A stretch of 63,978 bases of DNA, counting the filler, from Dimargaris cristalligena (Eukaryota): NCBI GenBank assembly GCA_003614675.1. It is 4 parts of 4 records of this genome, joined end to end, with 100 filler letters (N's around TTAATTAATTAA, not from the genome) between each part and the next. Parts side by side here need not be neighbours in the genome. Positions count along the whole stretch, not along the records: positions 48,391 to 63,978 come from ML002877.1; 3 more parts are not named here. One strand, given 5' to 3'. Below the pieces are notes generated by a model, which made no database searches, was not told the DNA's origin, and saw only the letters and a list, made by a program, of their open reading frames with translations. Shown in pieces: positions 6,563 to 63,978 of the stretch. Position numbers and translations under genes: made by a program. The number at the start of each line of letters is the position of its first letter. Positions within the stretch are counted from its first letter, which is position 1.

Positions 6563-9500
6563 TTACATACATGAGGTAGTCAGTCGATAGACCTTCGCCC
6601 GGATCTTGAGCAGATAGTTCTGGTTATTTAACGAATCGACGAAGTCCTGGAAGTCGTCGTACTGCAAATTTATGACTAATACCCGTTATTTCCGGGGGGG
6701 GGGTATTAAGTGGTAGTAGGGGGAAAATAAATGCATTTGACGGATTAGGGATAATTGCGCTACGGGGGATAAAAAAATACACGCGGTATCGCTGATGATC
6801 GAAAAATAAATAGTGTACCTAAACTGTGTATAATGGTGGCCCACACATCACAGCAAATCGCTTAGACTCGATATCTGAAACGCAACCGCCATCGTAGGCT
6901 GTGTCTATACTTACCCTGGGCAGCCTGGTACAGCTGTTGATAGGTGAATGTACTATTGTACGTTTCGTCGACCATTTTCTGCAAGTGCGAAATAAACCGT
7001 TTGGGCTCTGCACGTCTACTCATACCGGTACCCATTTGCGACCGGGAAAAGTCCAAGTCACCCACGCCGTCTTCGAACGCCTCAAATAGGCTATACTGCA
7101 TGAGATGGACGATATCCATCGCGTCCTCCTGAGTTACAAGCTCGCGTAGTTCCATGCGGGCCCGCGCTTCGGCGAGCCGAATGAGCGACTCAAGCTGGCG
7201 GGTGGTAATAGGCGTGGAGTCTACGGCCTGGCGCTTATTTCGCAGGGTGAGATAAAAATCCTGCAAGGTGGTGCACGCTTCAGGCGAAAGTACCGGCTGT
7301 ACGTACTTACGGGCATACGCGATGTATTTACGCAGAAGAGGAGCGGGAACTAGATCGAGCTGTTCTCCTCGGTTCAGACGCACTTTGGCCAACAAGGGTG
7401 ACGGGTTGTCGCTGGCGTCGAACAAAGCCCGTGCATCGCCCTGGGAGGCGGGGAGTTGACTAGGGGTTGGATTGGACTGGCTATTGTAAGTCTCTTTGGT
7501 ATCATTGGCTGCGGAATGGATATTCATAATATGCTCAGACAGGAACTGGTCGCGCTGTAAATTGGGTTTATCCAACATAATGAAAATGAGGTCAAACCGG
7601 GATAAAAGGGCGCTACCCATTTTGAGATTCTCCGACACCGTCTTGGATTTATTGTAATGGCCTCCTACGGGATTGGCCGCGGCAATAACGCTGGTGCGCG
7701 CAGGGAGACTGCACACAATACCGGCCTTGGCAATACTAATGGACTGTTGTTCCATAGCCTCCAGGAGGGCGTTATGGTCAGATGACATTTTGTCGAACTC
7801 GTCAATACAGCAGCACCCTTGGTCACCCAGCACCAAAGCACCTATGATGGAAAGATGGGATAATAATAATAATAGATATAGTAATGCACCTGGTCCGAAG
7901 GCCGTTAGAATGGCTTGAGTTAAGGCCCTATATAAGGATATCCTCCGGAAACAGACGAAAAGAAAAGTACTCCCCGCCGGGACTGTTCAACATGGCAGTC
8001 AAAAAGACTTAGGAAATGAATGAGTGTTCAAATAGGCGCTTACCTGCTTCCAAGGCAAAATCGCCCGTTGCACTATCCTTGCAAATGGTGACGGTTAGCC
8101 CGCAGGCCGAGGTGCCGCTGCTTCCGCAGACGTAAACCCCCCGGGGGGCCACATTGACCGCGGCATTAAGCATTTGTGATTTACCCATACCCGGGTCCCC
8201 AACCACCAGAATGTGGGGATCCGAACGAATTGGTATATGGTTCTTTCCGTCCTGGAAGGTTCGACGCTTACCACCAAACTGGCAAAGAAGGATCCCAGCT
8301 TTTATGAGTTCATTTCCGTAGATGGTCGGACAAAATGAGTTTACAATTAGACGGAATAGCTGGGGCTCTTTGAAGAGTTCCCGGATAAACTGTAGGTCCT
8401 TGTGGTTAAATTGAATCGCGTCTTTGCTACTAGTATCGTTGCCTGTGTCGTGCTCTCCGGAACTACCTTGAGAGCCACCTGCCGTGGGTGATCCTCCTAC
8501 TCGGGAAATCGACACAACGTCAAGATACAGCATGTACATGGCATTCTGGCTTTTGCCTCGACTGGGTCCCATGTCGTTGGCTTGAAGTACTTTAACGACG
8601 CCCGTGCAATTCACGACATCCCCGGGCAGTACTGCGTCAACCAGGTCGTGGGTTAGCTCACATTCTACCGTTCGTGGCACCCGCCCCGAGTCCAAGCGGT
8701 CGTCCGCAAACTTTTCCTGGATGCGAATCTTTTGCCAGTCTACGGTTTGAGTATCGCCTTGGGTACCCCGCTCGGGGAAGAATTCGCGGGTTTTGCAACC
8801 GGGGGTAGTGCATTTAGCTGGCTTGATGTATTTGCCGTCGTGCGCCTTGAGAGTTTGTCGCCGGCTGCAGCTAGCACATTTGAACGAAATCTGGGTCAGG
8901 AGTGGTTTGACCAGTGATGTACGCACCACTGGGTGTAGCAAGCAAACCAAGTAGAGGTATATGTATTCGTGATCACAAGTCTTTGGGAAATCTTAGATTA
9001 AAGACCAACTAACCGAATGGAAAGGGGAAATTATGTTTCAGTATGCTATGTCTATAGAAACTTACCGGTCCCTCGAATGCAAACCAATTTTCCTACAATT
9101 GATATTATATTTTATTTTTTGAATGTGGCATAGTTTGTAGTTACGAATGAGTCAAGGTCACCAATACTAAAGTTACCGCCAGAGTCCAAGAACTAGGGCT
9201 GGCTCTAGCTATTTAAACTATAGGATATGGGCCTTCCCAAAAATAAACGCTCCGCGAACTTACCGACAAGGTTGGACTTGAGACTCTTTAGTGGAGTGAT
9301 CGGTTCGTAGTGAACTAGGCGGACGTATATTTTGGATCTTAAATTGGACGAATCGGGTGTTTCGGGGTTAAGGCCGCGTTGTCGGAGGGACTATTTGAAT
9401 TTATGGTAGCGATTAGGATATATATGACAACGTGGAAACGCAGTGGTGGCTTAAGTTAGTCGGGATATGCCTAGAACATCGCCCTACTGGGTGTGCCCAC

Positions 9501-11124: not shown

Positions 11125-12066
11125 ATGGCGTCACAATATCGGTAGGTGGTTTGTATAGCGACCCTCATTGTACTGCGTTATTACTCATCTGGGGTTGCCC
11201 TTATACCTGCTTCAGTCTAGTAGCGAGTTCTCTTGGCCATACCCCTGTGTGGGCAATTGCCTCACCTCTAATCGATGCCAGACAACTTTTTGCTCGGAGT
11301 TTATCTGAGCACTGAATGGCAGTGGTGTCCAGGGCATATACCAGCTGGCCTTTTAGAATACACTCGACTTTTTGGTGTAGTTATGGTAGTGGTAAATCGA
11401 AATAACCCTTTATACTTAATTCAAACAACAGTATTGGCTTACCATGTGTTATACCCACTGCAAATATGTAGGTACGAGTGGTATCAGAATGACCGCAATG
11501 TATACCTGAATATTTTTATCAAAACCTCCGCCGACAAAGTCAAGGTTGAATTCAAACCCCAATCCCTGTCCGCTAATATCGACCTTCCCAGCGGGGGCAG
11601 TTACGTGCTTGACCTAGAGCCCTTGACCGGGGCCATTGAACCGGCCGAATCCAATTTCGAGGTTCTGTCCACCAAGGTGGAAATCACTCTCCGTAAGGCG
11701 GTCGTAGGGATCCAGTGGGCCAAGCTGGAAGGTGAATTGGCGAACCCTGCTCCCCGCAGTCAATCAGCGGAAGCCACTGCTAATCCACCCCAGTATCCTT
11801 CCAGTTCGCGTAAACAGCCCGTCAACTGGGACAAGCTCGCCCGCGAAACCGAAAAAGACCCCGAGGAAGCTTCCGCCACGGGTGACCAGGCCGTTAACCA
11901 GCTATTCCAATCCCTTTATAAAGATGCGTCTGAGGAGACCCGCCGGGCCATGATGAAGAGCTTTGTCGAAAGCCAGGGCACCTGTCTAAGCACCGACTGG
12001 AGTGAGGTTAGCAAGGGTAAGGTGGACGTCAAGGCTCCCGATGGCATGGTTCCCAAGAAGTACTAG
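11125..12066 (+). CDS. SGT1: Sgt1 Hsp90 co-chaperone, CS + SGS domains only (exons 11125-11141, 11472-12066; 203 aa)
   Basis: MASQYR|YEWYQ starts the CS domain. SGS motifs YPSSS, NWDKL, NQLFQSLY, RRAMMKSFVESQGTCLSTDW. The ORF-track N-terminus (11275-11471) is intron. Confidence 0.93.
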
Positions 12067-21181: not shown

Positions 21182-22087
21182 ATGGATCCCCTTGCTGATC
21201 ATTCCAGGCCAATTGATGAACATATCCCCATTGTGGGAAACCCTGTAACTGAGACTGTAGTGGCTATAGCCTCCACCGTGTCCCAGCGGCCCTTCCAGGC
21301 AATAACCGGATATGGCACTCCTCCCCGTTTTCAAGGAACTTTTTGAGACGACCCATTGGCCTGGCTCCGGCGTATGGAGTTATTCTGTGAAGTCCGCGAT
21401 ATTCCCAATTCCCACTGGGCGACCTTTGCCTCTGAATCCTTAGATGGCCTGGCTGCTACCTGGTTTTGTCGTACCCTATCGGATGAAGCCCAATCCCACC
21501 CTAACCTTACTCTTATGCAATTACCTATTATGGCCTGGTCTGCTTTCAAGCAGTCTATTACTATCCAATTTTTAAACAAAGACTTGAGTCTCGCTCTTCG
21601 AAACCAATTAGGCCAATTGCGCCAAGGCAACTCCTCGTCCAACTATATTTCCAAATTTAACAACTTGGTTCTATGTATTCCCGGTATGCATACCAGTGAT
21701 CAGCTGAAGTATTTCTTAGATGGGTTGCATCCTTCCCTACGCCAGGACTTACTAGTTGCGGGTGTTACCCACTTGACTGCCTTGACCGAAGCCCTGATAA
21801 AGGCCCTGGATTTGGGGAATTCCTCTCCGTTTACGGCCCGATTTTCCAGCCAGCATAATCGGCCTTTTCACAACCGGCCCCTGAATCCCCAACCTAGGTC
21901 CCCGGTACACTAAACAAACCTGGCATCTATGGAACTAGACTGGCGTCAAACCTTGACCCTCCGAGAGCGTCGACAGTGCCAGGCCCAAGGCACCTGCTTC
22001 CGCTGCCGCCAAGGGCGACATCTGGCCCGACATTGTTCTGGATTTCCCATCAGCGAATTGCTCTGCGACCCCCTCCTTCCCCGCTAG
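21182..22087 (+). mobile_element. Decayed Ty3/gypsy gag (two in-frame stops, no pol visible)
   Basis: One frame from ATG 21182 reads PPRFQGTF*DDPLAWLRRMELF...WSAFKQ...LRQG...YISKF...FLDGL...*...MELD...CFRCRQGRHLARHC (capsid motifs plus CCHC knuckle). PBS-like TGGTAGCAG at ~21110. Confidence 0.88.
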
Positions 22088-22896: not shown

Positions 22897-25739
22897 TTAA
22901 AATTTGACACCCCGGGTAAGGTGGGCCTTGATACCAGTCGACTCGCCCCCGTAGGCCGCTGTCGGCGTGACGGCCACCCGTTTGAACGAGCGTAGTTTTT
23001 TCTGGGCCTTTTCGAACTTCTTGCGCCGGACCACACGGGGGTTGCGGTTTTCCGGTTTGCGACGGGGGGCCAACCCCCGGTTGACCAGGATATGCCGCGT
23101 GGCTTTGCGCCGTTGCCCCTGGTCCAATCGTTCGCCGGCAATGACTTCGTCCACCAATTCGCGTTTCTGGGCCAATTTCTCGTCCCGGCGCTGTTGGCGT
23201 GCCGTGTCTTTCTTGGCCTTTTCCAAGGCCTTGATGGTGTTGGAAACGTCGTCGTCGTCGTCGTTGGCGTTGCTAAATTGGGATTGGTTGCCCTTGGACG
23301 CCGAGGCGTTCTTTTTGGAGTCCCGGCCATTTGTGCCACGTCCTCCGGCCATTTCACTATCGTCTTCGGCCCCGGAACCGGTGGCCGGGTCTCCTCCGTT
23401 AAAGTTATCGTCCACATTGAGGACATTCTGACTGCCGGTACCGGCCAGGGGCTGGACAGGCTCTTTGTAGGGCAAGTCGGTATCACCGGTGAATTTGAGG
23501 CGTTTATCCGTCCGATCAAACCGCTCTCCAATCCGCGATACCAAATGGCGAAGGGACCGGCGGCTGGCCTGCTTATCGTCCTCATCGAGCTCATCCAGGT
23601 AGTCCATATCAACCAGATCATTCCCGGCCAATTTACGCTTGGTCGCATTGATTTCCCCCATCGCCCGGGCCCGGCGGTGCTGGACCTGGATTTCCTTTTG
23701 GAGGGATCGAAGGGACGGTTCGTAGGCCACTCCCTTGGGGGCAGTAGATGACTTGGCCGTAGATTCGGAGGCCAGGTCACGATCGGACCCGGAATCTTCG
23801 CTTTCGCTGTCCAATGCCATATCTTGTTCGACAGCCTTAGACTTGTGGGTAGATGATTTCGCCGCCTTCGCTTTCTTTCCGGTAGTCTGGGCCACCACCT
23901 CCTGGTTATCGTCGGACTCTTCCGACTCACTCTCTTCGCCGGTCTCCTTCCGGGCCAAACGGGCCAAGAAATCGGTCACCTGGGGCTCGAGTGTCGACCG
24001 GACGGCTTGCAATTTACTCAATAATTGCCGCAGTTTTACCAGCACAGCCACGACGGGGTGGGCGCGCAGTTTGGCCTGGGACAGTTTGCCCCGGGCTTTG
24101 AGGGTCAGGTAGAAGGAAATGTTGGTTAGGTAGGACATGGCCGCCTGGTATTCGCTCTCCCAGAGGGTCAGTACGGGGTACGTTTCGGGGTCGGTGATAC
24201 CCAGGGCCCGGGCACGCTGGAGACTGGGGGCCAGTTCCCCGCTGGTTAGGCGGCGGACGCGGGTGAATTCGGACATGAGTTCCAGAACTTCCGGGGAGTT
24301 TTCCTGGAGAATTTGGATCTTCTCGGCTTGGGGCAGGGCCGCCAGATTGGACGACCGAACCTGGTCCAGCTGAATCAGATGGCCATCACCCGAGGCACCA
24401 CTGGCGGGGGTCTTTTCGTCGCTCAGTAGAACGTCCAGGCTCGACAGGAGTTGCTTATCGGCTATGGAACTGGTGCCCACTTGGACAGTGGAACTGAAAA
24501 TCAGGTGGTCCTCGCTCTGCTTCTTGGCCTGATGGGCGCGGGCCCGCATGGACGCCTGGGGAGCGGTGAGGTCGATGGTATCCGCATCCTCCTCGTCGTC
24601 TTCGTCGATGAGGTAATCATCTTCATTCACGGCCTCCAGTCGGAGTTTCTGGATACGTAAAGCTTCTTCTTCTTCGTCTTCGCGGTCCTGCTCCTCCTCA
24701 TCGGCTTCTAGGGGCTTTTCGGACTGGTAGTAAATGCTTTTACGGTTTCCCCAACCCGGATCGACACGCTTGGCTGAAGTAGTGGATTATATAGGAAATA
24801 TAAAGTAAACGGGTTAATAGGTCAATAGATATAAAGGGATGTATCGAATGTGCATCATTGGTATTCGTATTCCAACTTGCCTTCCAAGCAGGCCTGGGTC
24901 AGGATGATCCTTGGAATGGTAGCGGTCGCATGGGGAATGAGTTAGTTAAGGGTCGTTTTAAGGTAGTACCCCAATTTAGTTCACCAGGCATACGTTATAA
25001 ACCGAATGTCAACTTACTTTCTTTGGCCCCGAAAATTTCGTCCTTATCCATCGATGTCTGCGAGCTAGTATCGTCGCTGTTATATTCTTCAATATCCTCG
25101 TCCATATCATTATCGTCACTCTGATCGTCACTGTCACTCGAATCCGGTACTTGATAGATGCTCCGCTCGGAGTCAATGGGATCTAAACGTCAATTAACAA
25201 GGGTGACATGGAGTGAAAAGCTAGTTAGTTAATAAGCATAGTGAACTCTCTGGTCTATATAGAATACCAGTTGGTATAGTATTGTTATTTGTCCAGATTT
25301 GAGCAGGGCCTTGCGGCTACCATGCTAACACATACGGGGATGAGCATCACGGATGACTTACCATGGCGATTAAATACAGGCGCGGGGGCGAGTGAGGTGC
25401 CTTCGAAATCGACCTTGTCTCGGGAATTATGAACTATAGAGATACGATAAGGTGTCGCATAGGAAGAGGGGGGTGAGAGTTAGTGATGGAATACAGACGC
25501 GGAATAGGAATAAGTATTAAACCAAGATTACGGATAACGAAACATATTTCGGTAGACAAGGACCAAAATCTAGACTTACATTCGTCGATATCATCCTCGC
25601 TTAAATCATCCCACTTTTTGATGGCATCCCTGGTAGCCTCCGTGCGGAAGGCGCGGGAGTTGTTATCGAGGTACGACTCGTCGTCGTCATCGCCGGTGGT
25701 CCGGGGCTTCGGCTTAGCCGAACGACTGGAACGTCCCAT
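22897..25739 (-). CDS. SAS10: SSU processome component Sas10/Utp3 (about 4 exons)
   Basis: Acidic N-terminal exons, GWGNRKSIYY motif, SPEVLELM...YLTNISFYL...HPVV (Sas10/Utp3/C1D domain), and C-terminal NRGLAPRRKPENRNPRVVRRKKF...YGGESTGIK. Confidence 0.93.
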
Positions 25740-48290: not shown

Positions 48291-48390
48291 NNNNNNNNNN
48301 NNNNNNNNNNNNNNNNNNNNNNNNNNNNNNNNNNTTAATTAATTAANNNNNNNNNNNNNNNNNNNNNNNNNNNNNNNNNNNNNNNNNNNN
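48291..48390. other. Artificial contig-joining spacer
   Basis: N44-TTAATTAATTAA-N44. Confidence 0.97.
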
Positions 48391-49911
48391 ACGCTGGAAC
48401 CATCGAGTAAATGACGGCTGCTCCACTGGCGGGTCCCCTGTACACTCGGCCAGTTTAATGTCCACGAAGGCAGGAATGTGGCCCAAGTAGAAAATGAACG
48501 GATGACGTAGGTGGATGGGTTGGGCGTTCATTTGGTCGGCGGGGATGATTTCGGTGGCGACTACGTCCCACGCGTCCCAGAGGGCCTGCCACTCCGCCAC
48601 AGACGGCAGTGCCGAAAAGGGGAGAGTTCGACCACCTCGGGTGGTATCCCAGTCGGCAGGACGGTAAGGGGGTGGAGATGCATGGGACTGGACAGTGTGG
48701 TAGCGGGGGAAGAAAACGGCAGGTTTGCTTACTAGGGACAGTCGGTAATCGTGGCCATCCGAACTGGTCCAGTGATTGTCCACGGCCAGGTGGGCACTAT
48801 GGGCCAGCTGGTGTATTCTTTCAAGGGAAAACTTGACAGAATATTCCAAGTGAATACGCTCACCCGCGTGCAGATTAATGCACAAGGGTGACTGTTTCCC
48901 CGGACAATTGGAGGGGACCGCTGAGTTCATGTGACTACCGGGACCGGATTCCTTCGCCGGCTCGTGGTACTCTAATCGAACGGCCCGGCGAGCGCGAACA
49001 TAGGTCTCCACCCGAGTGCAGTGGGGGTTGTACCAGGAATCATACTCAAAATCGGCCAAGTTGAAGAGGGGCTGGCCCAGGATGTGGTTGGCATGTGTGA
49101 GTCCATTGAGAATAAAGTCGGCGGTGATGCCGGGGGCGTCGTGGTAGGCGCGGTGAATGGCCTTGGGGTTATTGGGGCCATCCGTCCCCAACAGGAGGGC
49201 GTCGCCCGGCTCGAGGGCGGACTGTAGACGCAACAGGAAATCTTCCGATGCTTGGGGTGTGAAATTACCCATGGAGGATCCCAGCCACCAGATACACTTG
49301 CGGTGGCCGTTCGGGAGAGTAGGCAGGTAGACCATACCATCTTCGTAGGTACCCCACAACCCCACTAGATTAATGTTCTGGAAAGGGCCAATTTGGGCCA
49401 GCGACTCAACAAGAGCGCTGTGGTCCACGTCCAGTGCGTAGTAGGTAAAGGGCCGACCCAATTGGTCGAAAGCTTCCAGGAGCAGACGGGTTTTGCGTAG
49501 AGCACCAGCGCCCAACTCCACCAGCACGCGGTGATCTTGACAGGTCTGGGCGATGGCGTCGCTCTCCTGGGCCAAAATATCAATTTCGGTGCGGGTAAGA
49601 TAGTAGTCATCGGTGTAGGTGATTTGGTCGAAGAGGTCCAACCCGTGGGAGTCGTACAGAACAACCGTGGGCAATGTACGAACTGGATCAATGTGAGCGG
49701 CGTCGGGCTCAGCGGGGTTGAAGCCGGGGACGATGGAAGGCTGGGACAGGCCCTGGATGATGTCATGGGCCAGGGAGTGGGCCGGGGCCAGCTTCTGTCG
49801 CCGGATATCAATTATGGGAACCGATGGTTTACCATCGACCAGACCAGGGCCACACTTGGGTAGGGCCACCCCAATATCGGGCAGGGTGTCCAGAGAGTTT
49901 AACATATTCAA
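48391..49911 (-). CDS. EGT1: Ergothioneine biosynthesis protein 1 (histidine methyltransferase fused to sulfoxide synthase), 3' end cut by the contig boundary
   Basis: LPTVVLYDSHGLDLFDQIT..YYLTRTEI, LVELGAG..RKT, WLGSSMGNF, AYHDAPGITADFILNGL, GERIHLEYSVKF (EgtD-type MTase), then PIHLRHPFIFYLGHIPAF (start of the DinB-like domain). Confidence 0.93.
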
Positions 49912-51619
49912 GCGGGAAGGGTTAGGGTATTGTTAGAATAAGAGCAGCCAGGAATAACACTATCGGGCCAGGTGCTGACCGAGTGTGGAAAGAGACAGGC
50001 AGAAGGGATACGCGGGGGTAGACGAACTATAATTAACGAAGAGGTTCATTGAATCCCAATACTAAAGACGTAGATAGTGCCACATGAGTGAGTCCAGTGG
50101 ACAGGCTGTGGAATGGACTATTTATACTAGTTTCAAGGCATCTGAATAGAGGAAGTGGGTGGGGAAGGCGGCGTAGAACAATAGTGGGGATCGACTGGTA
50201 AGCTTTGGTTACGCATTTCCGTTTCAGTCGAAGAAACGAAGTGCCCGTTCGTGACGCAGACGCAACCGTACAACCACCGCACTCCCCTCGGATGGCAGTT
50301 GCCGCTGCTTATGCACCGATGGAGGCCATTGCCTTTCCTGGCCTAACGCCACTGTGGAGGCTGTTATATTAATGACCCCTCCCATGGACTTCGGCTGGGT
50401 AGAGGAGAGGAGAGTACCCTAGATCATACCCCTTTCACCACCTGCCACCCAGAGCAGGGGAAAAGCCACTCCTCTAACTAACGAGGGAGGGGAGAGGGAT
50501 ACTATATTCCCAGCCCTTGTTGCAGCAAGTGTATTAATGTCGTCTCGCCTGGTTGAGCTGCCGCTACCAATTGTTCTATATGAGGAAAGGACTCATGACT
50601 AGGTCTCGGCTAGACTGTTGACGTAGGCAGAGGTGTTACAGGTTAATTCCGAAGTGGGCCGATGCGGCGGGAGCTGGTGGTCAGGGGCAGTCAGGACGGC
50701 GTACCAAATGCAGACTATATCCCTTAATCGACATTGAGTACAGAGAAGTCGCGGCGTATCACAGCTAATATCGGAAGTAGGTGGGGTACTATTATGCCTT
50801 GTAATCAGCCGACCTTTCACACAGTTTGAGTCATTTAACCATACCGGCCATTCGCGATACGGGCTGACCGGTGCTATGTGAACCGATTGAACAGGTCTGC
50901 ATCCAACTAACCTCCACTTCGGCCAATGTTTAAGCCTCCTCTGTACCCTGGCCACCCTGGGCAAATTGAACTATTAGATAGAGGTAGCCCTGTGGGACTG
51001 GCAGGTGATTTTTCAAGTGGCATACTGGATTATGGAAACATCTGATTAATGTAGCTAGACTGATTTAGGGGAAGTTTAGTGTCCTCCGGCTTCAATAGTC
51101 ACCGCGCTATAAAACCAAACCGGCCTGTATGACGTGACTTAGCCTGTTCTGAGCATAGAATTGGGGACAGGTAGCAATATAGCATAGCATACTTCGGTGA
51201 ATTCGGGGGTAGATGCGGCAGGATGTCTAGGCCACACTATACCTAACGCATTTATTGGAATGGAACCCCGAGTCACTTTTTAAAAATAAACGGCCAATAA
51301 GGTACTGACTTGAGGGTTAAAAGAATTATAAGAGCCGAAAATGTCTGTGTAATGTCATTGAAAATAAATAAAAAAACTGAAGCAAATGTCCGATTTCATT
51401 TGAAGAAGTAGAAGAAGAAAATGTTAACGTAAAGAGTTAGGAATTCATGGTCCACGAGGGAAAATAAGATGAACGAGAATAAAGGAAAGTGGTTAGAGGG
51501 GTCTAGGGCTAATAATATATTACTCCATTTGGATAAGCCGCGGTTGCATATACAGTAGACCCCCAGAGTGAGGTGAGGACGCATTCATGGTTGGATATTT
51601 TAAAAACCCCCTTCATAGC

Positions 51620-52618
51620 TTAGCCCCGGCCACACGGACCAGCTGCAAGGTGCTGGATGGCCGCTTCAACGACTTTGGCCGGGGCGGTCGTGAAAAACGT
51701 GGCGGGGTAGAACTCGGTGCCCCAGTGAGGGTGCACCAGTACATTGCAGCAGTTGGTGGTCAGAACTTGGTAACGGAGCAGGTATTGGCAGCCGGCCACA
51801 TCGGAGTAATAGCCCGGGCCGCGGGGGGAGAACACGGGGTAGCCCGAGCAAGGGTCGGTGAAGTCCGCCCAGTACTCGTCGCCCATACTCCGGATACGGT
51901 CACGGAGCGCATATGCCCAGTGCATGAACTGGTGGAAATAAGAAGACCAACATAGCGTTGGAGGAATTGGGATATTTGTAATGGTGGGAGAGTGAGTGAC
52001 AAGGTGGGAATATAGCTAGGTACTGGAGGGAAGTGGGAGGAGCAGTTTATCGATGAGTGGTTTGGCAGTGAAATATTTACGGAGGTGACTTACATTGATG
52101 AGTTTCTGGTCTTTCTCGGCCTCCACATCGGCCCCTACAGCCACCAGGGACCCACAGGTGGGCTGGAAGGTCGGGATAACCAATACCGGGTTGCTCTCAC
52201 CGGTATGGGGATCGGCAGCTGTTCCATTGACGGACTTGGGTTTTCCGACCGAGGTGGACGCCGGACGAAGGTGAGGGAAGGTCAAGTACAGTTCCCTCAG
52301 AAAGCGGGACGAGCAGGTGTGAATGGAGTACTCGAGCGGAAAGGCGGGGGGAGGAGCGGGTAGCCCGCAGGTCTGCGGTAGCTGGATCCCCCAGGGGTGG
52401 TTTTGGAGTACCGCCGCGGCCGCCGCGGGCAGGGTGCGAGTTGCACTGGGTACCCGGAAAGTCAGGGTTTGGGGGGCTTGTAGTTGATTCCGTGGGAGAC
52501 GAGTGGTTTGGGACGGCTTAGTCGAACCACAAGGGCCTAGCGAGGCGGTGGGGCTATTACTGCTACCCTTGGGCAAGCTACGGGTGCTCCACGAGCAGGA
52601 TTCGGCGGCAACTGTCAT
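51620..52618 (-). CDS. MMADHC: Cobalamin trafficking protein CblD (exons 52094-52618, 51620-51928)
   Basis: EYSIHTC...LTFP, EAEKD, YWADFTDPCSG, CCNVLVHPHWGT..YPATFFTTAP motifs. GT-AG intron in phase. Confidence 0.9.
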
Positions 52619-53668: not shown

Positions 53669-54334
53669 TTAGAGCGACTTGCCCATAAACTTGCGCTTCT
53701 GAAAGCAGAGCCACCACTTGCTGGGGGTACCGTCGACATACACCCGTTCAACCAGGCGCTGGCCCAGTTCCTGGCGGATCTGGGTCAGGTACTGCCGAAG
53801 CAGATCGGTGTCGAATTTGCTCTCCGGGGTCGGGTAGAGGGAATAGAGGGGGAACGAGGTATCGCCGGGGATCGAGAAATTGGAAACGGCCAGGGTGTAC
53901 AGGGCCTTGGTGGCCTCGGCCTGCGACGTGTGGCGATTCAACTTGGTCAGGCATTCGGAAATGTACAGAATGAGGTAAATCAGCAGGCGGTCGCCGGGGC
54001 CCTTAATTTCAAAGTTGCGGAAGAGGCAGTTGGCGCGGAACAGGTCCAGGGCCTCATCGACGGCATCTTCCACGGACGGCTCGGCTGGGGGGTCAAGGAG
54101 AGACGCCCAAAGGTATATGCATTATACAAGAGGGGCTGGTTGTTAAGAGCTGGGTAGCGGGAACTGGTGCCTACTATGACCTGGGCTAGGTCAGTCAGAG
54201 ATGGCCAAGTGAGGAGGTGCTGGTTTACCTTGCGGGGCAGGGCCCTTGGCTTTGGTTTTGAGAGGGACCAGAGGAATGCCGCCGATGACGCGGTGGTCCG
54301 TAAGGGAGTTGTATGCTGAATGGTAGGCCGGCAT
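53669..54334 (-). CDS. ARPC3: Arp2/3 complex 21-kDa subunit (exons 54229-54334, 53669-54084)
   Basis: MPAYHS...GPAP...DEALDLFRANCLFRNFEIKGPGDRLLIY...PSKWWLCFQKRKFMGKSL. Confidence 0.97.
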
Positions 54335-54877
54335 GGTATTAAGGGAAGAGGGGTTATTAGTCCTAAACAGAGTGGATGGGGTGGATGAAACGGCGAAGTA
54401 GAAGGTGAAGTTGAGTTTAAGGAATTCAGATGGGGAGAGAGGCTACTAATAGAATAGGCCCGCACTGGGGGCTTGGCTGTATTCTCGTTTTAGCACTCCT
54501 CCCGCTGCCAAGAGAATCCAGCCGTTCCAAGTCCAGTCATTGACTCTCTAGTAGAGGGGGGGAGGTACTGTAGCTATTATCTATCTACTAATTATTACAT
54601 ACTTGCGTATGTGTGTTCGTTTGTATTGTGTACCCCTTCAACCCACCCACCACTAGTACCTTTTACTTGGCCCTACCTTCCCGTGGGAGGCCCTATGAAG
54701 TCGAAGCTCCATTTCCAGTTGTCGGTTGGTGGATTAATGGGGTGTGTTTTCTTGAATACCATCTCCGATAGGCTCTGGGGTGCGCCATGGCTGGTGACTA
54801 ACCTTGGAAGTGCCACAGAAAAAAAGAGACGCTGTACATAACACTGTCGATATGATGAGGGCTATCCAGCATTGTCT

Positions 54878-54928
54878 CTACCTACCTACCTACCTACCTA
54901 CCTACCTACCTACCTACCTACCTACCTA
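54878..54928. repeat. (CTAC)n microsatellite in the ARPC3/TYR1 divergent intergenic region
   Basis: About 12-13 perfect CTAC units. Confidence 0.95.
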
Positions 54929-55106
54929 TACAGGCAGCGGAAAGACCAAGTAAGTCGTGTGGTGGGTGAGTCAAGTGCGCTGCAAGGCACAGTCCCCTCG
55001 CCTGCCCTACCCGCTCATGAACTGAACCCTAAGGTCTGTTTGTTGCTGCCTCTTTCGTTTCTTATCCTCATACCTTATAGCTGTTACTATAGCCACAAGC
55101 CCCACC

Positions 55107-58100
55107 ATGGCCGAATCCCGCCCACCCGTCACCGGCGAGGCCCTCGCCAAGCTCAAGTCCACCTTCGAAATCGGCCTGATTGGGGCCGGTGAAATGGGTC
55201 TCCTCTACGCTCGGCAGCTTCGCGACGCCGGCTGGCAAAGGTACGTAGCTCGTCCAGTCCAGTTCAGGGTTTATCCGCTCGACCCACCAGAGTTCATTCC
55301 GGAAGTGTTGGGTGTTAGTTAGGGTAGTGGTGCCGTATGGGTGGTCTATTCATGCTATAAAAAGAAGCTGCTTAAAAGAATATCCCCTCGTTAACTTTTT
55401 TTTTACACGGACTCCCATTTCCCCCTGGATTTATATGGCTGGACGACTGCTGTTTATAAACCACAATAATAGAGTCAACATTTGCGATTTACCTTCTAAA
55501 TATAACGAACTCCGCAACAAACTTGCAGGTATGTATACCCCCCTCTTTACTGTGGGAAGGCTCATACATAATATAACCCATGGTGTTTATAAACCATTAA
55601 AACCTCGGCTCTTTGAACCTATGTTTATTTTCTTGTGCGAGATTGCCGCCAACCTTGGTGTTAACCATACCGGGCAATCCTATTTTGCATATGTTTTATT
55701 TAATTTGATGTGATTTCGTGTCACAGGGCAGGGTATCAATGTGCTTCCGGACGGCTATGCCGTGTCGCGACTCAGCGACTACATTATTTACTCCGTCGAA
55801 GCCGCCAATCTGCCCCGGGTCGTGGCTGAATATGGTAGAGGTAAGTCGTTCTGGCGAAACCAACCCCCTCCCCCACTCCTTCTCATGCATGGCAGATTAG
55901 CTAATGGTTTTAACAGCATTATCCGCCACATAACTGGGGCACATGCCAATTATACTAGCTAGACCTTCTGCGAACCATGGTCACTCATTCTAATTGTATT
56001 ACATTATTTTATAATTGACCCCCTCTAGCCTCAAAATGCGGTGCCATTGTAGGAGGACAGGTAAAATCCCCCACCTTTTCCATCTAACCTATTCAACAGC
56101 TTCACTGCATAATCCCCGCATTGTTGAATTATTTTACTAACATCCCACGCTTCCCTTAAATACGCGTCTTCACCCTGATACCCCACTTTCCCCCCAATCA
56201 CCACCAGACATCGGTCAAGACGCCCGAAATTGACGCTTTTGAGAAATACTTGCCATCGGATGTCCAAATTGTCACTATGCACTCACTACATGGGCCCAAC
56301 ATCAGTACACAGGGTCAGCCATTGGTAAGTTAAACTCAGTCCACAGGGGTGCTTTCACATACCCTCCCCACCACTTTATGATATTTAAATCACTACATTT
56401 TTAACCAGCTGTTTTAATTTACATCGACATGTCCCGGGGCTTTAGGTGGTTATTCGGCATCGCTGTGGTAACGAGGCCTACGACAGAGCCCATGCTGTTC
56501 TGCAATCGCTCGGTGCCAATATGGTCTATTTGACCTACGAGGAACACGATAGGTAGGCCCGGCTATGGCCTGTTGAACCAATCCCATTTAAAAGCGAAGG
56601 TAGCCAGCTTAGCTATCCCGTCCCGCTTTTACGAACCAATACCATATTTTTTATACTTACTTTACTATCGTCATGGTACCTTTTTTAGAATCACCGCGGA
56701 TACCCAAGCGGTCACACATTTGGCATTTATCAGGTAGGACCTTCGCCTTTATTTATATAAGGCAAATGCCCAAAACAAGAATACACTACAAATTATGACT
56801 TCGGATTAACCCACCTCTATCCAAATCGACCCTAATTCTAACCAAGCAATGTTCGGGAGACTGCCTTGTTTTGGCAAACTATATTATTTAACCCTCGTTT
56901 TTAGCATGGGCACGGCGTGGATGACCCAGAAGGTCTACCCAGTAAGTTTTTTAAAAGTCCAATATGGATATATTAGACGGTAGACGGGATCGGAGGAGTA
57001 GCCAGTGTATAAACAAATAGTAATCAATTCGTTTTTGATTCAACGTATATAAGGCATTGCTGATTTTTCTTGAAACTAATTACTCAAATCATTAATTGCA
57101 TATCCAACCTATATTCACATATGTTTTTTTACATTGAAAGTGGGAAAACCGAACCTACATCGGTGGCCTGGAGAATGTCAAAGTAAACATGGCAATGCGA
57201 ATCTATGGCAGCAAATGGCATGTTTACGCGGGTAAGTGATCATTAATTTTGTAAAAATGCTCTAAACCCGGACTACAATACTCCTAATACGTATGCACAA
57301 CCATCGTAACGCATTATGTGTAACTCGTATAAGATCCTTTTTGACCTATGCCTCTGTAAATACCATTTATATTTATACCCACGTGCCGGGTTGGTTGTGT
57401 TAGGTCTCGCCATCTTAAACCCGTTTGCGAAGGCACAAATCAATCAATACGTTCAATCGGTTGTCGAGCTTTACAAAATGATGATCTTGGGCCACAAGGA
57501 CGCTTTCCGGCGCCGGATTCATGAGGTAAACTATCGATCCCTTAATCCATTCAGGCGGCCTGTAATATGAAGGGGGGGGGATCTCACAAGCTCCAGGGAA
57601 ATTAATATGCCTTTGGCCAATTACGCGATATTTTATAACGCTGGTATTCACTCAAACTGGTCTTCATTGTTTTTCTTTTATAATATCCACTATTGTCTCT
57701 ATCACCATAGGCCCGCGAGTTTGTATTCGGCGGCCCTAGCAAGGATCGAAGCCCCATCCTCTTGAACGATCAGATCATGGACAAATTTTCCCTGGGCAAT
57801 ATTCCCAAACAAGCCCGTAAACCCAATTCACATCTGTCCTTGTTAGCTATGGTAAGGGCCAATTTTCTATTATTCAAATACTGAATCTGGCCTTGGCCAC
57901 ACTTGGTTGTCAAACAGGCCAGTTGGTTATTTTATTTGTTATCATGGGATCCACCGTTGCTGCTTTAGACTCGGTGGTTTTTACTATATCCCCTATTTGG
58001 CTTCATTCTGAACCCTCCCCTCTACTTTATTGTATACATGGATTTGATTTGCTATCCAACGCTTCCCCCAATACCAGGTGGACTGCTGGCATAAAATGGG

Positions 58101-58649
58101 AATCAACCCCTTCGACCATCTTATTTGCCAAACACCCCCGTTCCGCCTCTGGCTGGGGATTGTCGAATTTTGTTTCCGAAACTCGGAGATTCTGGAGGAA
58201 TCCATCGAAACGGCTATTAATGACAAGGAAGTCCATGCCGAGGACCTTTCGGTAAGTCATGCCCACATTGGACAATGCTACATATACTCCACTCACTCAT
58301 TCCTAAGGGGCTTTGTCTAAATAGGTTCTCGTGGGAGTATGGCAAAACTGCTGGCCAATTTGTACTAACGTTTTTTTCGGATATATATATATATATATTA
58401 TTGTCTATTTAAATATGGTACCATCTTTTTACTGACTGGATTCCTTGATCCGGCCACCCTACTACCTTGTAGTTCTTTTCCATGACCCAAGGCTGGGCCC
58501 AGTGTATTCAATCGGGATCTTTTGTGGGCTACCAACTGCGGTTTCAAGAAACGGCCCAGTTTTTTGAGTCGCGCTTAGATGAAGCCAAGGTGAACAGTAC
58601 GGAGATGATTAAACTCATCACTCAGAAAACCCAATCCAGAAATCTCTGA
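55107..58649 (+). CDS. TYR1: Prephenate dehydrogenase (13 exons)
   Basis: IGLIGAGEMG Rossmann motif, SDYIIYSVEA, VGGQTSVK, HSLHGP, EEHDRITADTQAVTH, KWHVYAGLAILNP, KPNSHLSLLAMVDCW, HLICQTPPFRLW, spread across 12 GT-AG introns. Confidence 0.93.
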
Positions 58650-59108
58650 TTTTATTAAGGACACGGCTTTTCTTTTTAACATGACGGGGTAGGCCCTAAT
58701 CAGATATAATGCTATGGCATTACCTATTGGTTTCCCATCCATCCCTTTTCGAAGTATTACGTAGTGGCCCATGATCGCTTTTTATTTTTTTATTTTGAAG
58801 TTTTTAGTTGAGATTAACAGATTGATAATTCGTAGGCGTATTAATGAAGTTCTTTTTGATTGCTAAAAAACTGTGTAGAAGTGAATCGGTGGCCCTTGGT
58901 GAGCTAAAAAGTGGACTTGTTTGCCGGCATGTTCCTTGTTTGGCATGGTAGGTTTCCAAAGTAAAAATATGAACTAGGCTGCTACATTTCTGTGTTGTTG
59001 AACACCTGGGCACAAACCGACCTGAACCTATACCAGCTTGCAGTCCGAGTCGATACCATCGCGAAGTTGCTGAAGCGGCCAACGTTGTTTTCAGTCTAAT
59101 TAGGCTAT

Positions 59109-59795
59109 TTACAAGCGGCCAGCGACATTTCCTTGGCTAGAGATACCGAGTCTGTTTTTCGGATAAGGACTTGTTACTACCCGGCTACGCCGTGGGGTGA
59201 ATCGGCATGCGGGCCGCGCTACAACGGGGCCAATCTCGCCCTCAACCTTAACCTGGGAGGTATCGGCGTTAGCGAAGCCTTCTACGCAGCTTTCTCCGCG
59301 ACCATCCATGCTACGCGCGACAGGCGATTCTCTGCCAAAGATCCCGAGGTGGTCTTCCTGGTAAGGGTTGGTTACTGCTTGACCACACCACGGGGCAAAT
59401 CGACATGCGGGTCGCTCTACAAGGGGACCATTCCTACCTTCAATTTTAACCTTTGCGATGTCAGCATTAGCGTCACTGAAATACTTTTCGTCATTTTCTG
59501 CCCATTCGAAGGGTTTGCGATCGATGTACGACTTTGCTTGGCAAGCAGCTCCTCCCGGGTGCATTGCCTGGTAAGCGTGGGCTGTTACTTGGTCATACAG
59601 TGGTGCGAATTGGCAAGTGGGTCGCCATAAAATGGGGTCATCTTCGCCTTCAATTTTGATATTCGGGAGATTGAAATCGCGTTTTTCGTCACCAATATTG
59701 GACCGGTGGGTGAGTTCACCTATGGCCAGGGCATCTAGTCCCGTGAAATATCCCAGTATGGTTAGAAGGGCTAAACAAAGACTCACTTTAGACAT
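59109..59795 (-). CDS. Secreted orphan protein with three internal repeats (228 aa)
   Basis: Signal-peptide-like MSKVSLCLALLTILGYFTGLDA, EKR site, and three repeats of (I/V)K(I/V)EG..GP...RP(A/T)C.F.P...VT.PY. Intronless. Confidence 0.75.
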   Translation of the reverse strand: MSKVSLCLALLTILGYFTGLDALAIGELTHRSNIGDEKRDFNLPNIKIEGEDDPILWRPTCQFAPLYDQVTAHAYQAMHPGGAACQAKSYIDRKPFEWAENDEKYFSDANADIAKVKIEGRNGPLVERPACRFAPWCGQAVTNPYQEDHLGIFGRESPVARSMDGRGESCVEGFANADTSQVKVEGEIGPVVARPACRFTPRRSRVVTSPYPKNRLGISSQGNVAGRL

Positions 59796-60940
59796 TAGGA
59801 AATAACCAATAGATGATATAAGGGTATATCAGCGTATAGAAGGGGTATTGGCAAATGGAATGATCACCTTGATTAAAATTGAGGCCAAAACAGCAAGTAG
59901 AAAAGGTGCTGGGGTGTTGGATAAGATCGAGAAAGAGAGAGGATAGAGAGAGCTCATATGGAAAGGAGTCCACTATATACTTGCTCCTAAATACACCTGG
60001 GTTTAGTTGAGTAAGGGCTGGGATTCCAAGGGACATATCCATCCAGCCTTCCCTATACACCCCCCTTCCAAGAACATAGCAAATTCGTTGAGCATGGCCT
60101 AAGAGTCCCCTCCATTCACTATAGATGGGGGAGGAGGGATGTAAATGTGTGGCTGACGGTGCGGGAGGAATTGGGTGTACAGGGTAAATGTAACCTTCTA
60201 TAGTTGCCGTATTGCCCCCCCCCCCAAGGTACCTCGAGAATAAATGTGGACTGATGACGGCCGCACGCTGAGGCCATTAACGAGACGGGGGGAGGGTAAT
60301 GATATTACATTAAGGAAAGATTGGTCGACCCAACTCACACTGTCTGTGTCACTTGATCAAACTCAGAGGGGCGCCATCGTTCCGCTGTTTTGAAACCAAT
60401 TTTCTAGGCATCTGTGCCATTGCTTATACCGGAATGATATATAATCGAGGGTCTATTAGGTGACACTGTGGCGCATAAGGATAGTCTGGGCATCGTTTGG
60501 TTATTCCCATAATTTATTTAGTAAAGGTCTATTTGAATAAAATAACAGGCATGTTCATATTTCAAATTCAGCATTTTTCAACCGAGATTCATCCTACTTG
60601 TTATATTTATCGGCCCATCGGAGCATATCAAGCGGATAACTGTCACGAGGGCATTGGTTGGAGTAGATGAAAAAGGACTTTCGTTGGATTTCCCCATTCC
60701 AAGTCCATTTGCCACACCTGGCCATTTCCCACCACTAACCCCGATTCATTATTAAAGCCAAGATTGGTGGTGATATTTGGACTGGTTGATCAGTCGCTCT
60801 AAATAAGTGTCCATAAAAAGACCTCTCTTTTTAATGGGGATGAAATCGGGCCAAGTGAAAGCTCATAGTATGTACATAAATCAAACGGATATACCTTTAG
60901 CTAAGGATCTCTATAGAAACTGATTAAATCCCGACACTCC

Positions 60941-61882
60941 TCAAATATTGGGCATGATTATAAATTTTGCATTAGGCTCCATATCCGCCCCTTGGCAATC
61001 CGGTCGATGCAATGCTAGCTTGCACTTACTGAGAAAGACCTGCATACAACGCTTACACGAGGTATTGGTTTCGCCGAAACGATGGAACCGATGCTGTTTC
61101 AATAATGACGGGGATTTAAATGTCTTTTGGCAGTCGGCACAAATGGACTTGGAAGTTTTGCAGCCGTTTTGGGTGTGGCGCGTATAATCACTGGTTCGGT
61201 GAAACTGGCGGGGACAATCGGGGCATGTTTTGAAGAAACTGCACTGCCCCGGCTTGGTTTGGTGATTCTGAAGGGTGGGAGCGTTGGCCAAGGACTTTTC
61301 GCATTTGGGACAGGTGACGCGTTGGTAGGGATTCTCCGAGTTTAGCGGCCCGGTGGGGGAGGCCGAGGGACGTCGAATGAAGGGTCGGATGGCTCGGCGG
61401 TTCGGGTAGGGTTCGGTGACTTGGGGCGCACCAGTGGCTAACCGACCCTCGCCGTCCGGTCGGGATTTACCCCCTTCCAGTTGGGAATTGGTGGTATGTT
61501 GTTCCGGGCCAGCGTCGCTGTCATCCGCCATGGAGCAGGCGAGTACTGGGCCATCGATAACGTCGTCGCTGTCGGCGCTCTCACAGCTATACTCGGGCCC
61601 CCAATATAGACTACCGCTGGATGACGATGGAACAAGGCCCACCGGAAGTTCCCCTGCGTCGGCGTCGGTATTGCAGGGGTATACGCTGGAGGGGTATTCA
61701 AGAGAACTTGCGGCCATGGTGGGGTCGCTAGAGCCATTCAAATCATGCACGAGGAAGCTGACGGCCATGCGGTCTTCCTTATTAGTGACCCCCGTGGGGA
61801 GTTGTTGTGTAGGACGGGCCTGTAGCTCCCAAAAATGTTCCAGAAGAACGAGACCAGCTGCCAAAAGGGAATATTTATGCAT
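60941..61882 (-). CDS. Signal-peptide-bearing protein with four C2H2/C2HC zinc fingers (313 aa)
   Basis: MHKYSLLAAGLVLLEHFWELQA-RP leader, acidic Ser-rich middle, basic patch RRAIRPFIRRP. Fingers CPKC..H..C, CPDC..H..C, CADC..H..H, CKRC..H..C. Confidence 0.8.
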   Translation of the reverse strand: MHKYSLLAAGLVLLEHFWELQARPTQQLPTGVTNKEDRMAVSFLVHDLNGSSDPTMAASSLEYPSSVYPCNTDADAGELPVGLVPSSSSGSLYWGPEYSCESADSDDVIDGPVLACSMADDSDAGPEQHTTNSQLEGGKSRPDGEGRLATGAPQVTEPYPNRRAIRPFIRRPSASPTGPLNSENPYQRVTCPKCEKSLANAPTLQNHQTKPGQCSFFKTCPDCPRQFHRTSDYTRHTQNGCKTSKSICADCQKTFKSPSLLKQHRFHRFGETNTSCKRCMQVFLSKCKLALHRPDCQGADMEPNAKFIIMPNI

Positions 61883-63925
61883 TGTGAGCAGTATAGATAT
61901 AGGAAAATGTATGATACGACCAGCGGTGGTAATCGAGCCGGAGCTGTATAATATAAATATGGGCGAATTTAGGTAAATCTAATTAAAAGAGCTCATCTAA
62001 ATAATTAATATCTGGTCATACAAGCGTACAATATCGCAAGCAATAGATAAAAGTCGAGGGGATAGGTTCGTCAAATAAAACCAATTAAGATTGTTGGGGT
62101 ATTGGGGTATATATATAGGCTGGTAACATTGTGAATACACTATTACAAGGGTTAAAATACTGTACATGTGGCGACGTGGTCTGTCCCTCCGGCCAAGACC
62201 AAAATTGCCTTTAACGTTTGTTTTTTTTGCGGGTATCTAGTTGATAGTACGGGGGACCTTAATATGAAACAATGGGGCCGGCGTGGGGGGGTGTATTGGG
62301 CGATGAAAAGAGATAAAAAACCCGGCCGGTTGTGTAACCACAGATAAAGTGCCTTGGCCGCGGTTGGGAGTTTGAGTTGAGGAAAGAATATATGACTTAG
62401 TTTTGGTATCACTAATCATGCACTGCTGGAGGGGATGATAAGGTAGTTTAAATGGTCAGCCGGAAAATTATCGGGACATGTTTGCTCTTATCTTGACAAA
62501 TCTTCCGATACTCATTCACTCCAGGGTACACCCTCATATGTTTTGATGGCTCTGTCCGACCACTTCGCAGTCCGTCCCCCTGGATATTTTCGCCACTCAA
62601 TTTTTGATTATTTTACATTGACCACCACCACTCAATCCTTACACATGGTCAAGGTCGTCAACCTATCAAATTTAACCGCTATACCATGAGGTTTGTTTTT
62701 TCACGCTTTCTAAACCTGGATCTTGGTAATAGGTTCCTGTGTGGGGTAGAATTCCCTTGCTAGAGGTTACGGATATAGCCGTATTTCAATGACAAGTTAA
62801 GGCCCGCCACACCTATATAATATATTTTTAGATACCCGGTTTTTTATTTTCTCGTTGAAAGCCCAGTGCAGGTATTTGGGACTAATCTATTTCCCAATGA
62901 TAGTACATCCCTAATGGATCTCCATCTGCGCAATTTACAAACCAATCACTGATTTGGACAAGCTTATTTCTTCAGCCAGTCGTACATTATAGGAATAATG
63001 CCCCAATTTATAGATCCATTACAAAGTATAGTCCACCGTCCCTCTTGTGCTTTTTTTTATTGTTTGCCTACCAAACCGACTAATGCGAATTCTGCCCAAT
63101 CAAGTATATGTAGCCCCCGAATGAAAAATAATAATACCGTTTAGCGACATTCAACATGGAGTTGAAATAGTGAAAGCAGAAGGTGAACGAAAGGCCTTCC
63201 CGAAGGAAATCCAGAGATTATTCTGTAAGAGAAAAGGGCCCGCCAGGGGCGTTGGTAAATGTCTGCAGTTAGTTTGATTGAATTGATTATACATATAAGG
63301 AATAATAGTTCGTGTGAAATAGCGTCCCAAGCATGAGTCGATTGGCCCTAGGTATATAATCAGTGAGTAAAGTGAAGTTGATTTCCTACCCATGTGGTAG
63401 TGTTTGAAATCGGGCGACTAGGTCAATAGATAATATTTAAAAGCACCGCCCGAAGACTAAAATACTTTGTATATTGGCGTCTGTCTTGGAGAATATTAGT
63501 CGAGCCTGAGGGGTTGATAGAAAATATATATTCTTATTAAGGTGTACCCAATCCCTCCCCCTAGTGTGATATCGTTTTGCCAATGGGGCTGACCAGTTTA
63601 GTTGAAAGACTAGGCCTACCGGGACAGTTGGAATCCCTCTCAATAAACGCGGAATGAGGTGTACGTAGTGGGCCAACCCGATTTCAATGACAAGTCAGGG
63701 TTGGTTCGACATGGTTAATTGAACATGATATATTTTAATCAGGGATATGTAGGTACGGAAAACGAGGATCAAATTAGTTAAACTAGGGGAGATGTCTTAT
63801 ATTCATGTATAGGCGAATTTGACAAAGAATCCATTATTTGCCAGGTTGACATTAAATTATCCCGCTTCTGTGATTGGGTCGTTTTATAGAGTAATATGAT
63901 GATGGACTTAATGGTCAAACCAAAT

Positions 63926-63978
63926 GGGAGAAGTTCATCCAAGCTGTATAACGAAAAATCCATTTGATGAGGCAAGTA
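63926..63978. mobile_element. 136-bp MITE, copy 7 (cut by window end)
   Basis: AAAT then GGGAGAAGTTCATCCAAGCTGTATAACGAAAAATCCA, close to copy 3. Confidence 0.85.

Follow-up and report, generated by a model that had tools for sequence, protein, structure and literature searches.

What is a zinc-finger protein doing with an N-terminus that looks like a secretion signal, and in whose nucleus would it act? The question is raised by a gene on the minus strand, at positions 60941..61882, of a 63,978-nucleotide stretch of Dimargaris cristalligena DNA (the window, from here on: four parts of assembly GCA_003614675.1 joined by filler). It is a real, uninterrupted gene of this mycoparasitic fungus, restricted to the species. 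We propose, at a probability of about 0.45, that its product is a candidate secreted effector of the host nucleus, of the MoHTR1-3 kind, and more likely an activator than a repressor. The letters HTR stand for 'host transcription reprogramming', and the MoHTR proteins are secreted C2H2 nuclear effectors of Magnaporthe oryzae (PMC7672089; PMC10189765; these papers and the others cited below are drawn on as excerpts). The parts of the gene and of its product that the argument uses are the following, all on the minus strand.

61947..61959, minus strand: TATA-like element TATTTATATTATA, 65-77 nucleotides (nt) upstream of Met1, with a presumed promoter role
60941..61882, minus strand: open reading frame (ORF) of 313 codons plus stop in a single exon, read as one stop-free translation, with the stop codon at 60941..60943
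61817..61882, minus strand: signal-peptide-like leader, residues 1-22, MHKYSLLAAGLVLLEHFWELQA, with n-region MHK, h-region YSLLAAGLVLL and c-region EHFWELQA
61748..61771, minus strand: RMAVSFLV, residues 38-45, read from the sequence and containing the alternative start Met39
61493..61702, minus strand: acidic region rich in Ser, Asp and Pro, residues 61-130, delimited by composition, with a putative function
61367..61405, minus strand: Arg-rich patch PNRRAIRPFIRRP, residues 160-172, with 5 Arg, read from the sequence
61241..61312, minus strand: finger 1, C2HC, residues 191-214, C191-x2-C194-x12-H207-x6-C214 (Pfam, phmmer, pattern)
61160..61225, minus strand: finger 2, C2HC, residues 220-241, C220-x2-C223-x12-H236-x4-C241 (Pfam, phmmer, pattern)
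61082..61141, minus strand: finger 3, C2H2, residues 248-267, C248-x2-C251-x12-H264-x2-H267 (Pfam, pattern)
60995..61057, minus strand: finger 4, C2HC, residues 276-296, C276-x2-C279-x12-H292-x3-C296 (pattern)

A preliminary description of this sequence had read the protein as a secreted mimic of a transcription factor that could recruit a co-repressor. Its anatomy stands in every element: the signal-peptide-like N-terminus (residues 1-22), RMAVSFLV downstream of it (38-45), the acidic Ser/Asp region (61-130), the basic patch (160-172) and the four C-terminal fingers, in the order C2HC, C2HC, C2H2, C2HC. Its general idea, a zinc-finger protein with a secretion leader that works in the nucleus of a host, has an experimental precedent in the MoHTR effectors. 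The co-repressor mechanism that it attached to this anatomy, by way of an eh1-like motif, is not supported, as we show when we come to that motif.

Is the ORF coding? With codon frequencies trained on 2488 codons from the Pfam-confirmed ORFs of the window, its codon log-likelihood ratio over the whole length reaches +71.9 in frame, where the other two frames give -113.9 and -118.3, and the stop-to-stop frame that holds it (60944..61978) has the top codon score among the 85 ORFs of at least 50 amino acids between 54.2 and 64 kb. An antisense ORF, 61530..61976 on the plus strand, was considered as the coding strand and rejected, as it falls outside the 14 top scorers of those 85. We also considered and rejected a transposon origin: the gene has no flanking inverted or long direct repeats (54000-63978), and tblastn finds no second copy of it in the window. 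Apart from the fingers themselves, a Pfam scan of the ORFs reports no family beyond ARPC3 (53669-54121). Even so, the notion of a 'gene-sparse effector island' holds only in part, since three pieces of the plus strand at 57.7-58.65 kb have coding-like codon scores, and because of them we do not take the sparsity of genes as evidence.

The next question is where translation starts. The preliminary description had started the protein at the first ATG, and a start at Met39 would have removed the leader altogether. In frame, codons 1-38 have a codon score of +10.0; read out of frame, they give -7.8 and -29.4. A score of +10.0 is higher than that of 24% of 121 true coding windows, and it is attained by 2.5% of 600 presumed non-coding windows, which often carry stops, so that the coding contrast is somewhat flattered. 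The 32 open in-frame codons upstream of Met1 score -2.7. The context is CTCACAATGC at Met1, where position -3 is A, and GACCGCATGG at Met39, where position +4 is G. There is no ATG between the TATA-like element and Met1, and the annotated model P0002, a protein of the same species to which we return below, likewise begins at Met1. Because codons 1-38 look coding and the context of Met1 is the stronger one, we prefer Met1 to Met39; on these sequence grounds it is very likely the translation start.

How unusual is the leader for a protein of this type? Behind a single Lys, residues 6-14 (LLAAGLVLL) reach a mean Kyte-Doolittle hydrophobicity of 2.93, which makes them the most hydrophobic 9-mer of the protein. 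After this core comes a polar stretch ending in L-Q-A and then R-P, and by our reading of the -3/-1 rule the likeliest cleavage would be after Ala22, before Arg23-Pro24. We have put the resemblance into numbers using a home-made three-part rule, which asks for a net positive charge before the core, for an uncharged run of 10-18 residues that begins by residue 8, for a hydrophobicity averaging at least 2.5 over some window of 9 residues, and for a -3/-1 site 3-9 residues further on with no Pro near it. The rule was written with the query already seen, and with that bias toward the query it selects the query, the neighbouring ORF 59109..59795, 136 of 300000 random N-termini of housekeeping composition, 17 of 300000 of the protein's own composition, and none of the 2447 natural 35-mers taken from the Pfam-confirmed housekeeping ORFs of the window. 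Because random N-termini and natural 35-mers so seldom have this form, we regard the N-terminus, by its sequence, as a real anomaly for a nuclear protein. A signal anchor or membrane tether was considered for the same residues and rejected, because the hydrophobic run is too short (10-11 residues) and too polar for a membrane span, the best 19-residue window averaging 0.95 on the Kyte-Doolittle scale.

Behind this leader stands an array of zinc fingers, presumably of the beta-beta-alpha fold; such fingers are nuclear or cytosolic modules. The Pfam zf-C2H2 model (PF00096) matches three stretches and scores 33.1 bits, where its cut-off is 25.2 (E 6e-8), the best stretch being residues 248-265 in finger 3. 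A phmmer search against all chains of the PDB aligns residues 185-294 to ZNF568 (E 3.9e-14), and also finds Aart, PRDM9 and WT1. Each of the four fingers has the spacing C-x2-C-x12-H and carries hydrophobic residues at its two core positions (in order L/L, F/Y, F/L and F/L). Compared with the classical C-x2-4-C-x12-H-x3-5-H, three of the four end in Cys, and the last spacings are x6, x4, x2 and x3, so that fingers 1 and 3 lie outside x3-5. We assign the protein, by domain, to the classical C2H2 finger superfamily. With classical C2H2 factors such as ZNF568, WT1 and PRDM9 it has in common the C-x2-C-x12-H spacing, the hydrophobic core positions and the tandem arrangement; it differs from them in the Cys that ends three fingers, in the odd spacings x6 and x2, in the signal-peptide-like leader, and in having no orthologue that we could find.

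Two details of the array resemble DNA-binding fingers. The recognition helix of finger 2, RTSDYTR, has Arg at helix positions -1 and 6 (numbering read against a classical finger), and FGETNTS, which joins fingers 3 and 4, is similar to TGEKP, the linker found in DNA-binding arrays. Below the Pfam cut-offs there are similarities to the LYAR C2HC finger (PF08790, 16.5 vs 20.7 bits, E 0.0077), to the third, C2HC finger of BIRD-IDD (PF22995, 11.7 vs 27 bits, E 0.21) and to UBZ (PF18439, 11.0 vs 25.6 bits, E 0.34). By language-model features (ESM Atlas), the nearest clusters are all generic zf-C2H2, at 0.92-0.94, with a recognition value of 2020, under the 2300 mark, which takes the assignment no further than Pfam does. 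A single-sequence AlphaFold2 model is unusable (mean predicted local distance difference test score, pLDDT, 37.7; predicted template-modelling score, pTM, 0.16), with pLDDT above 50 just for a helix at residues 9-20. As a side observation, HRFHRF in finger 3 corresponds in the DNA to a tandem duplication of 9 nt, CATCGGTTC/CATCGTTTC, whose two units agree at 8 of 9 bases (61076..61093, minus strand); its second unit supplies the last His of the finger, and a single unit would leave no fourth ligand.

If this protein regulates transcription, in which direction would it act? The preliminary description had read RMAVSFLV as an eh1-like motif. The eh1 (Engrailed homology 1) consensus is FxIxxIL, and it serves in the recruitment of Groucho/Tup1-type co-repressors. 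MAVSFLV is like it in being short and hydrophobic, with aliphatic residues at positions 3, 6 and 7, and unlike it in that Met takes the place of the Phe that defines eh1 at position 1. For the strict heptad FxIxxI[LI] the protein gives 0 matches, and it has no WRPW motif either. MAVSFLV is its single match to the loose pattern [FMLIV]x[ILV]xx[ILV][ILV], which also appears in 666 of 5000 composition-preserving shuffles (13%), which is to say at chance level. For these reasons co-repressor recruitment is unsupported.

The acidic region suggests the opposite direction. Residues 61-130 contain 14 Asp or Glu, 14 Ser or Thr and no Lys or Arg, with Tyr, Trp, Leu, Val and Ile interspersed, and by its composition the region looks like an acidic activation domain. 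Because a stretch of 70 residues with a net charge of -14 has this resemblance, activation would be a better guess than co-repressor recruitment. The Arg patch at residues 160-172 is a possible nuclear localisation signal (NLS) of a non-classical type.

Who else has this protein? A collection of 5.8 billion proteins gave 2721 candidates, of which the sole relative is P0002, the hypothetical protein H4R33_003293 [Dimargaris cristalligena], of 399 residues; it is identical to the zinc-finger protein at 283 of 290 aligned residues (98%), with one difference over residues 1-285 (R224H). When residues 1-185 were compared by HMMER with 1.84 billion representatives, the result was just P0002 and a spurious low-complexity repeat protein (E 2e-4). 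A word search with residues 183-313 gave 2 candidates with P0002 as the single match, and a metagenome scan gave 90 pattern matches and zero relatives. No Magnaporthe protein is among the matches of the searches with the full protein, with residues 1-185 or with residues 183-313. The protein appears to be an orphan, as is common for effectors, as far as these searches reach, a result of limited weight given that the share of Dimargaritales in the searched collections is uncertain. That the gene is present in two Dimargaris-labelled assemblies argues against a contig from a co-cultured host.

P0002 gives a different account of the locus, and it involves two further features.

61024..61029, minus strand: GTAAGT inside finger 4, used as a donor in P0002 (the annotation of another strain) and probably a chance site
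59109..59795, minus strand: downstream orphan ORF of 228 residues (ORF translation), with a strong signal-peptide-like start, MSKVSLCLALLTILGYFTGLDALA

P0002 maps to 59188..61882 on the minus strand. It tracks our ORF up to Leu285 plus one base, skips 1296 nt as a first intron, and resumes within the downstream ORF past the ATG and leader that this ORF has of its own; a second intron removes a further 203 nt. We judge this 399-residue model to be, very probably, a fusion of two neighbouring genes and an artefact of prediction, because its first intron halves finger 4, which the unspliced reading completes (when the 45 nt that follow the donor are shuffled, a stop-free x4-[LFYIMV]-x2-H-x3-5-[HC] comes out 29 times in 100000); because it throws away a downstream start codon and a textbook leader; because its second intron drops repeat 2 of three in-frame repeats and changes the frame; and because 1296 nt compares with at most ~200 nt for the intron of the MCM gene, the one intron bracketed in the window (profile positions 116/115 meet across its two ORFs). 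As it stands, the P0002 model is unfit for secretome or domain counts.

Read by itself, the downstream ORF has three in-frame repeats of ~66-70 residues, each opening with [IV]K[IV]EG and containing RPxCxF(A/T)P. In codon score, its stop-to-stop frame (59112..59828) comes second within 54.2-64 kb, at +36.4. It has no Pfam family and, by word search, no relative but the fused P0002. From its sequence it looks like a secreted repeat protein, and it could itself be an effector candidate. For the zinc-finger gene, it lends support to export that the 3' neighbour on the same strand is also an orphan, with a stronger signal-peptide-like start.

What would such a protein be exported for? The Dimargaritales (Kickxellomycotina), to which D. 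cristalligena belongs, are mycoparasites whose haustoria are formed in hosts from the Mucoromycota, and in the excerpted text the papers cited here on genomes of the order deal with proteases, with enzymes related to chitin and with secondary metabolites, and do not take up translocated effectors (PMC10386755; PMC9866270). In the pathway that we propose, the leader would bring the protein into the endoplasmic reticulum (ER); secretion at the haustorial interface would follow, and the Mucorales host cell would take the protein up. It would then refold with zinc in the host cytosol and enter the nucleus, where the fingers would bind host DNA, finger 2 having Arg at the two main base-contacting helix positions, and the acidic region would recruit the conserved fungal transcription machinery, leading to activation. 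We infer all of these steps; what we see is a gene, its array of fingers and a leader that is anomalous. Rather more tentatively, and at less than even odds, we suggest that the mycoparasite, from an early-diverging lineage of fungi, exports a complete activator, made up of an acidic activation region and a four-finger DNA-binding array, into the nucleus of another fungus, where it would switch on host genes by means of the conserved transcription machinery of the host, and that the gene forms a small effector locus with the adjacent orphan.

The closest known systems are the MoHTR effectors. MoHTR1 and MoHTR2 combine a secretion signal with a C2H2 domain that has basic residues on its flanks; both are specific to M. 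oryzae and were observed in rice nuclei (PMC7672089), and the order in MoHTR3 is signal peptide, NLS, C-terminal C2H2 domain (PMC10189765). The protein described here has in common with MoHTR1-3 an N-terminal secretion signal (here putative), a basic region and C-terminal C2H2-type fingers, together with restriction to one species and a parasite that feeds on living host cells (PMC7672089; PMC10189765). It differs in having four fingers, three of them C2HC, and a 70-residue acidic stretch; in not having RxKK, the core NLS of MoHTR1 (PMC11555045); and in its 313 residues, slightly over the size given as typical for an effector, which is under 300 residues (PMC10189765). Its host would be a fungus, whereas that of the MoHTR proteins is a plant, and their secretion and nuclear location are experimental, while the present protein is known from sequence alone. 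The MoHTR class is defined by function and not by homology; the likeness drawn here is one of described architecture. Bacterial TAL effectors and the oomycete Crinkler (CRN) proteins are also parasite proteins that alter transcription in the host nucleus (PMC7672089). They share with our candidate the concept of delivery to that nucleus, and differ from it in fold, delivery route and organism, with no sequence or domain similarity in the Pfam scan.

There are points that weigh against this reading. An ordinary endogenous transcription factor is built in exactly the same way, from an acidic region, a basic patch and C-terminal fingers. In the leader, the c-region of 8 residues departs from the usual type, since it contains two Glu, a His, a Phe and a Trp and has Leu at -3, and a trained signal-peptide predictor might give so imperfect a c-region just a moderate score. 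In transit through the ER, 15 Cys would be exposed, along with two N-glycosylation sequons (N49-G-S, and N273-T-S in the linker between fingers 3 and 4). The classical NLS patterns (K[KR]x[KR], bipartite) are not found in the protein, and an RxKK is impossible because it has no KK dipeptide at all. The orphan status is weak evidence, since the disordered half of a transcription factor changes quickly in evolution. Nor can DNA binding be taken for granted, as C2HC fingers bind protein in some families (FOG, IDD, NEMO).

Could it be, then, a lineage-specific C2H2/C2HC transcription factor of the fungus itself, activating the fungus's own genes, with a leader that does not function or a start at Met39? 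We consider this a serious possibility, if somewhat short of an even chance. The build just described is the textbook one for a fungal activator, the nearest language-model clusters are generic zf-C2H2, zinc fingers belong to the nucleus and cytosol, the c-region is imperfect, and Met39 does have its G at +4. Moreover, many predicted 'secreted DNA-binding' proteins are unvalidated, with 20 candidates in M. oryzae (PMC7672089), and such predictions take in many cases that are untested or wrong. Against an endogenous factor stand a Leu/Ala/Val core at residues 6-14 that is rare by chance (136/300000; 0/2447) and would put a nuclear protein at risk of mis-targeting, codons 1-38 that look coding behind the stronger context of Met1, and a finger array (residues 183-313) for which the word search found no orthologue, whereas the DNA-binding arrays of housekeeping regulators are usually conserved. 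An exported protein that binds no DNA, its C2HC fingers holding instead a metal or a protein of the host or of the parasite, in the host cytosol or outside the cell, would agree with the Cys that ends three of the four fingers, with the non-canonical H-x2-H of finger 3, with the sub-threshold similarities to LYAR, BIRD-IDD and UBZ, and with the protein-binding CCHC variants of the FOG, IDD and NEMO type. We give it a very slim chance: those three similarities all fall under their cut-offs, the best PDB matches (ZNF568, Aart, PRDM9, WT1) are DNA-binding arrays, and the Arg pair of finger 2 and the TGEKP-like linker point toward DNA.

A further reading is that the gene model is wrong and the features in part an artefact, either because the fused P0002 is right or because the ends are changed by a short 3' intron or by an upstream exon that has escaped notice. 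P0002 does connect residues 1-285, by way of the GTAAGT at 61024..61029, with the mature part of the downstream ORF, and a CAG following an AT-rich tract, ~60 nt upstream of Met1, could be an acceptor. The fusion, however, takes an intron of 1296 nt where the MCM intron has at most ~200, splits a finger whose unspliced completion is rare among shuffles (29/100000), skips the ATG and leader of its neighbour, and then removes repeat 2 and shifts the frame with a second intron. As for an upstream exon, the 14 best of the 85 ORFs include none that lies upstream of 61978 on the minus strand, the 32 codons before Met1 score -2.7, and P0002 too starts at Met1. We consider an error of this kind improbable. 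The reading that we prefer remains that of a secreted activator of host genes.

The rest of the window is mostly housekeeping, identified by Pfam.

6862..8992, minus strand: MCM8-like helicase, in two exons
11272..12066, plus strand: SGT1-like protein with CS and SGS domains
22897..24786, minus strand: Sas10/Utp3
48343..49932, minus strand: histidine-specific methyltransferase (PF10017), as in ergothioneine synthesis
51620..52015, minus strand: MMADHC
53669..54121, minus strand: ARPC3

Just past the last of these genes there is a (CTAC)n microsatellite of ~64 nt (54870..54933). The coding-like pieces of the plus strand, 57711..57881, 58048..58317 and 58473..58646, have codon scores of +20 to +23; no Pfam family is found in 58048..58320, nor in 57821..58255, an ORF in a different frame that overlaps the first piece, and the pieces within 57711..58646 may form a small multi-exon orphan gene. 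At 21347..21913 on the plus strand an ORF has retrotransposon gag and Ty3 capsid domains (E 1.9e-10 and 9.7e-8), by which we take it for a Ty3-type element or its remnant, ~40 kb along the window from the zinc-finger gene.

How new would a nuclear effector sent from one fungus to another be? Among the matches listed in our literature search there is no paper joining a mycoparasite with a nuclear effector, nor, among those listed for Dimargaris cristalligena and secretion, any effector-themed title; going by this partial listing, the case may be new. To our knowledge, almost nothing is known about host control by the biotrophic mycoparasites of the Zoopagomycota. Should the protein stay inside the fungus, it would count as another lineage-specific zinc-finger regulator, of little general interest. 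If it is exported, it would be a small, intron-free candidate with which to probe transcriptional reprogramming of one fungus by another, and the DNA motif of its fingers could indicate the host genes that the parasite needs. Should the reading hold in full, this would be the first fungus-to-fungus nuclear effector, and the MoHTR strategy would have arisen independently outside the plant pathogens.

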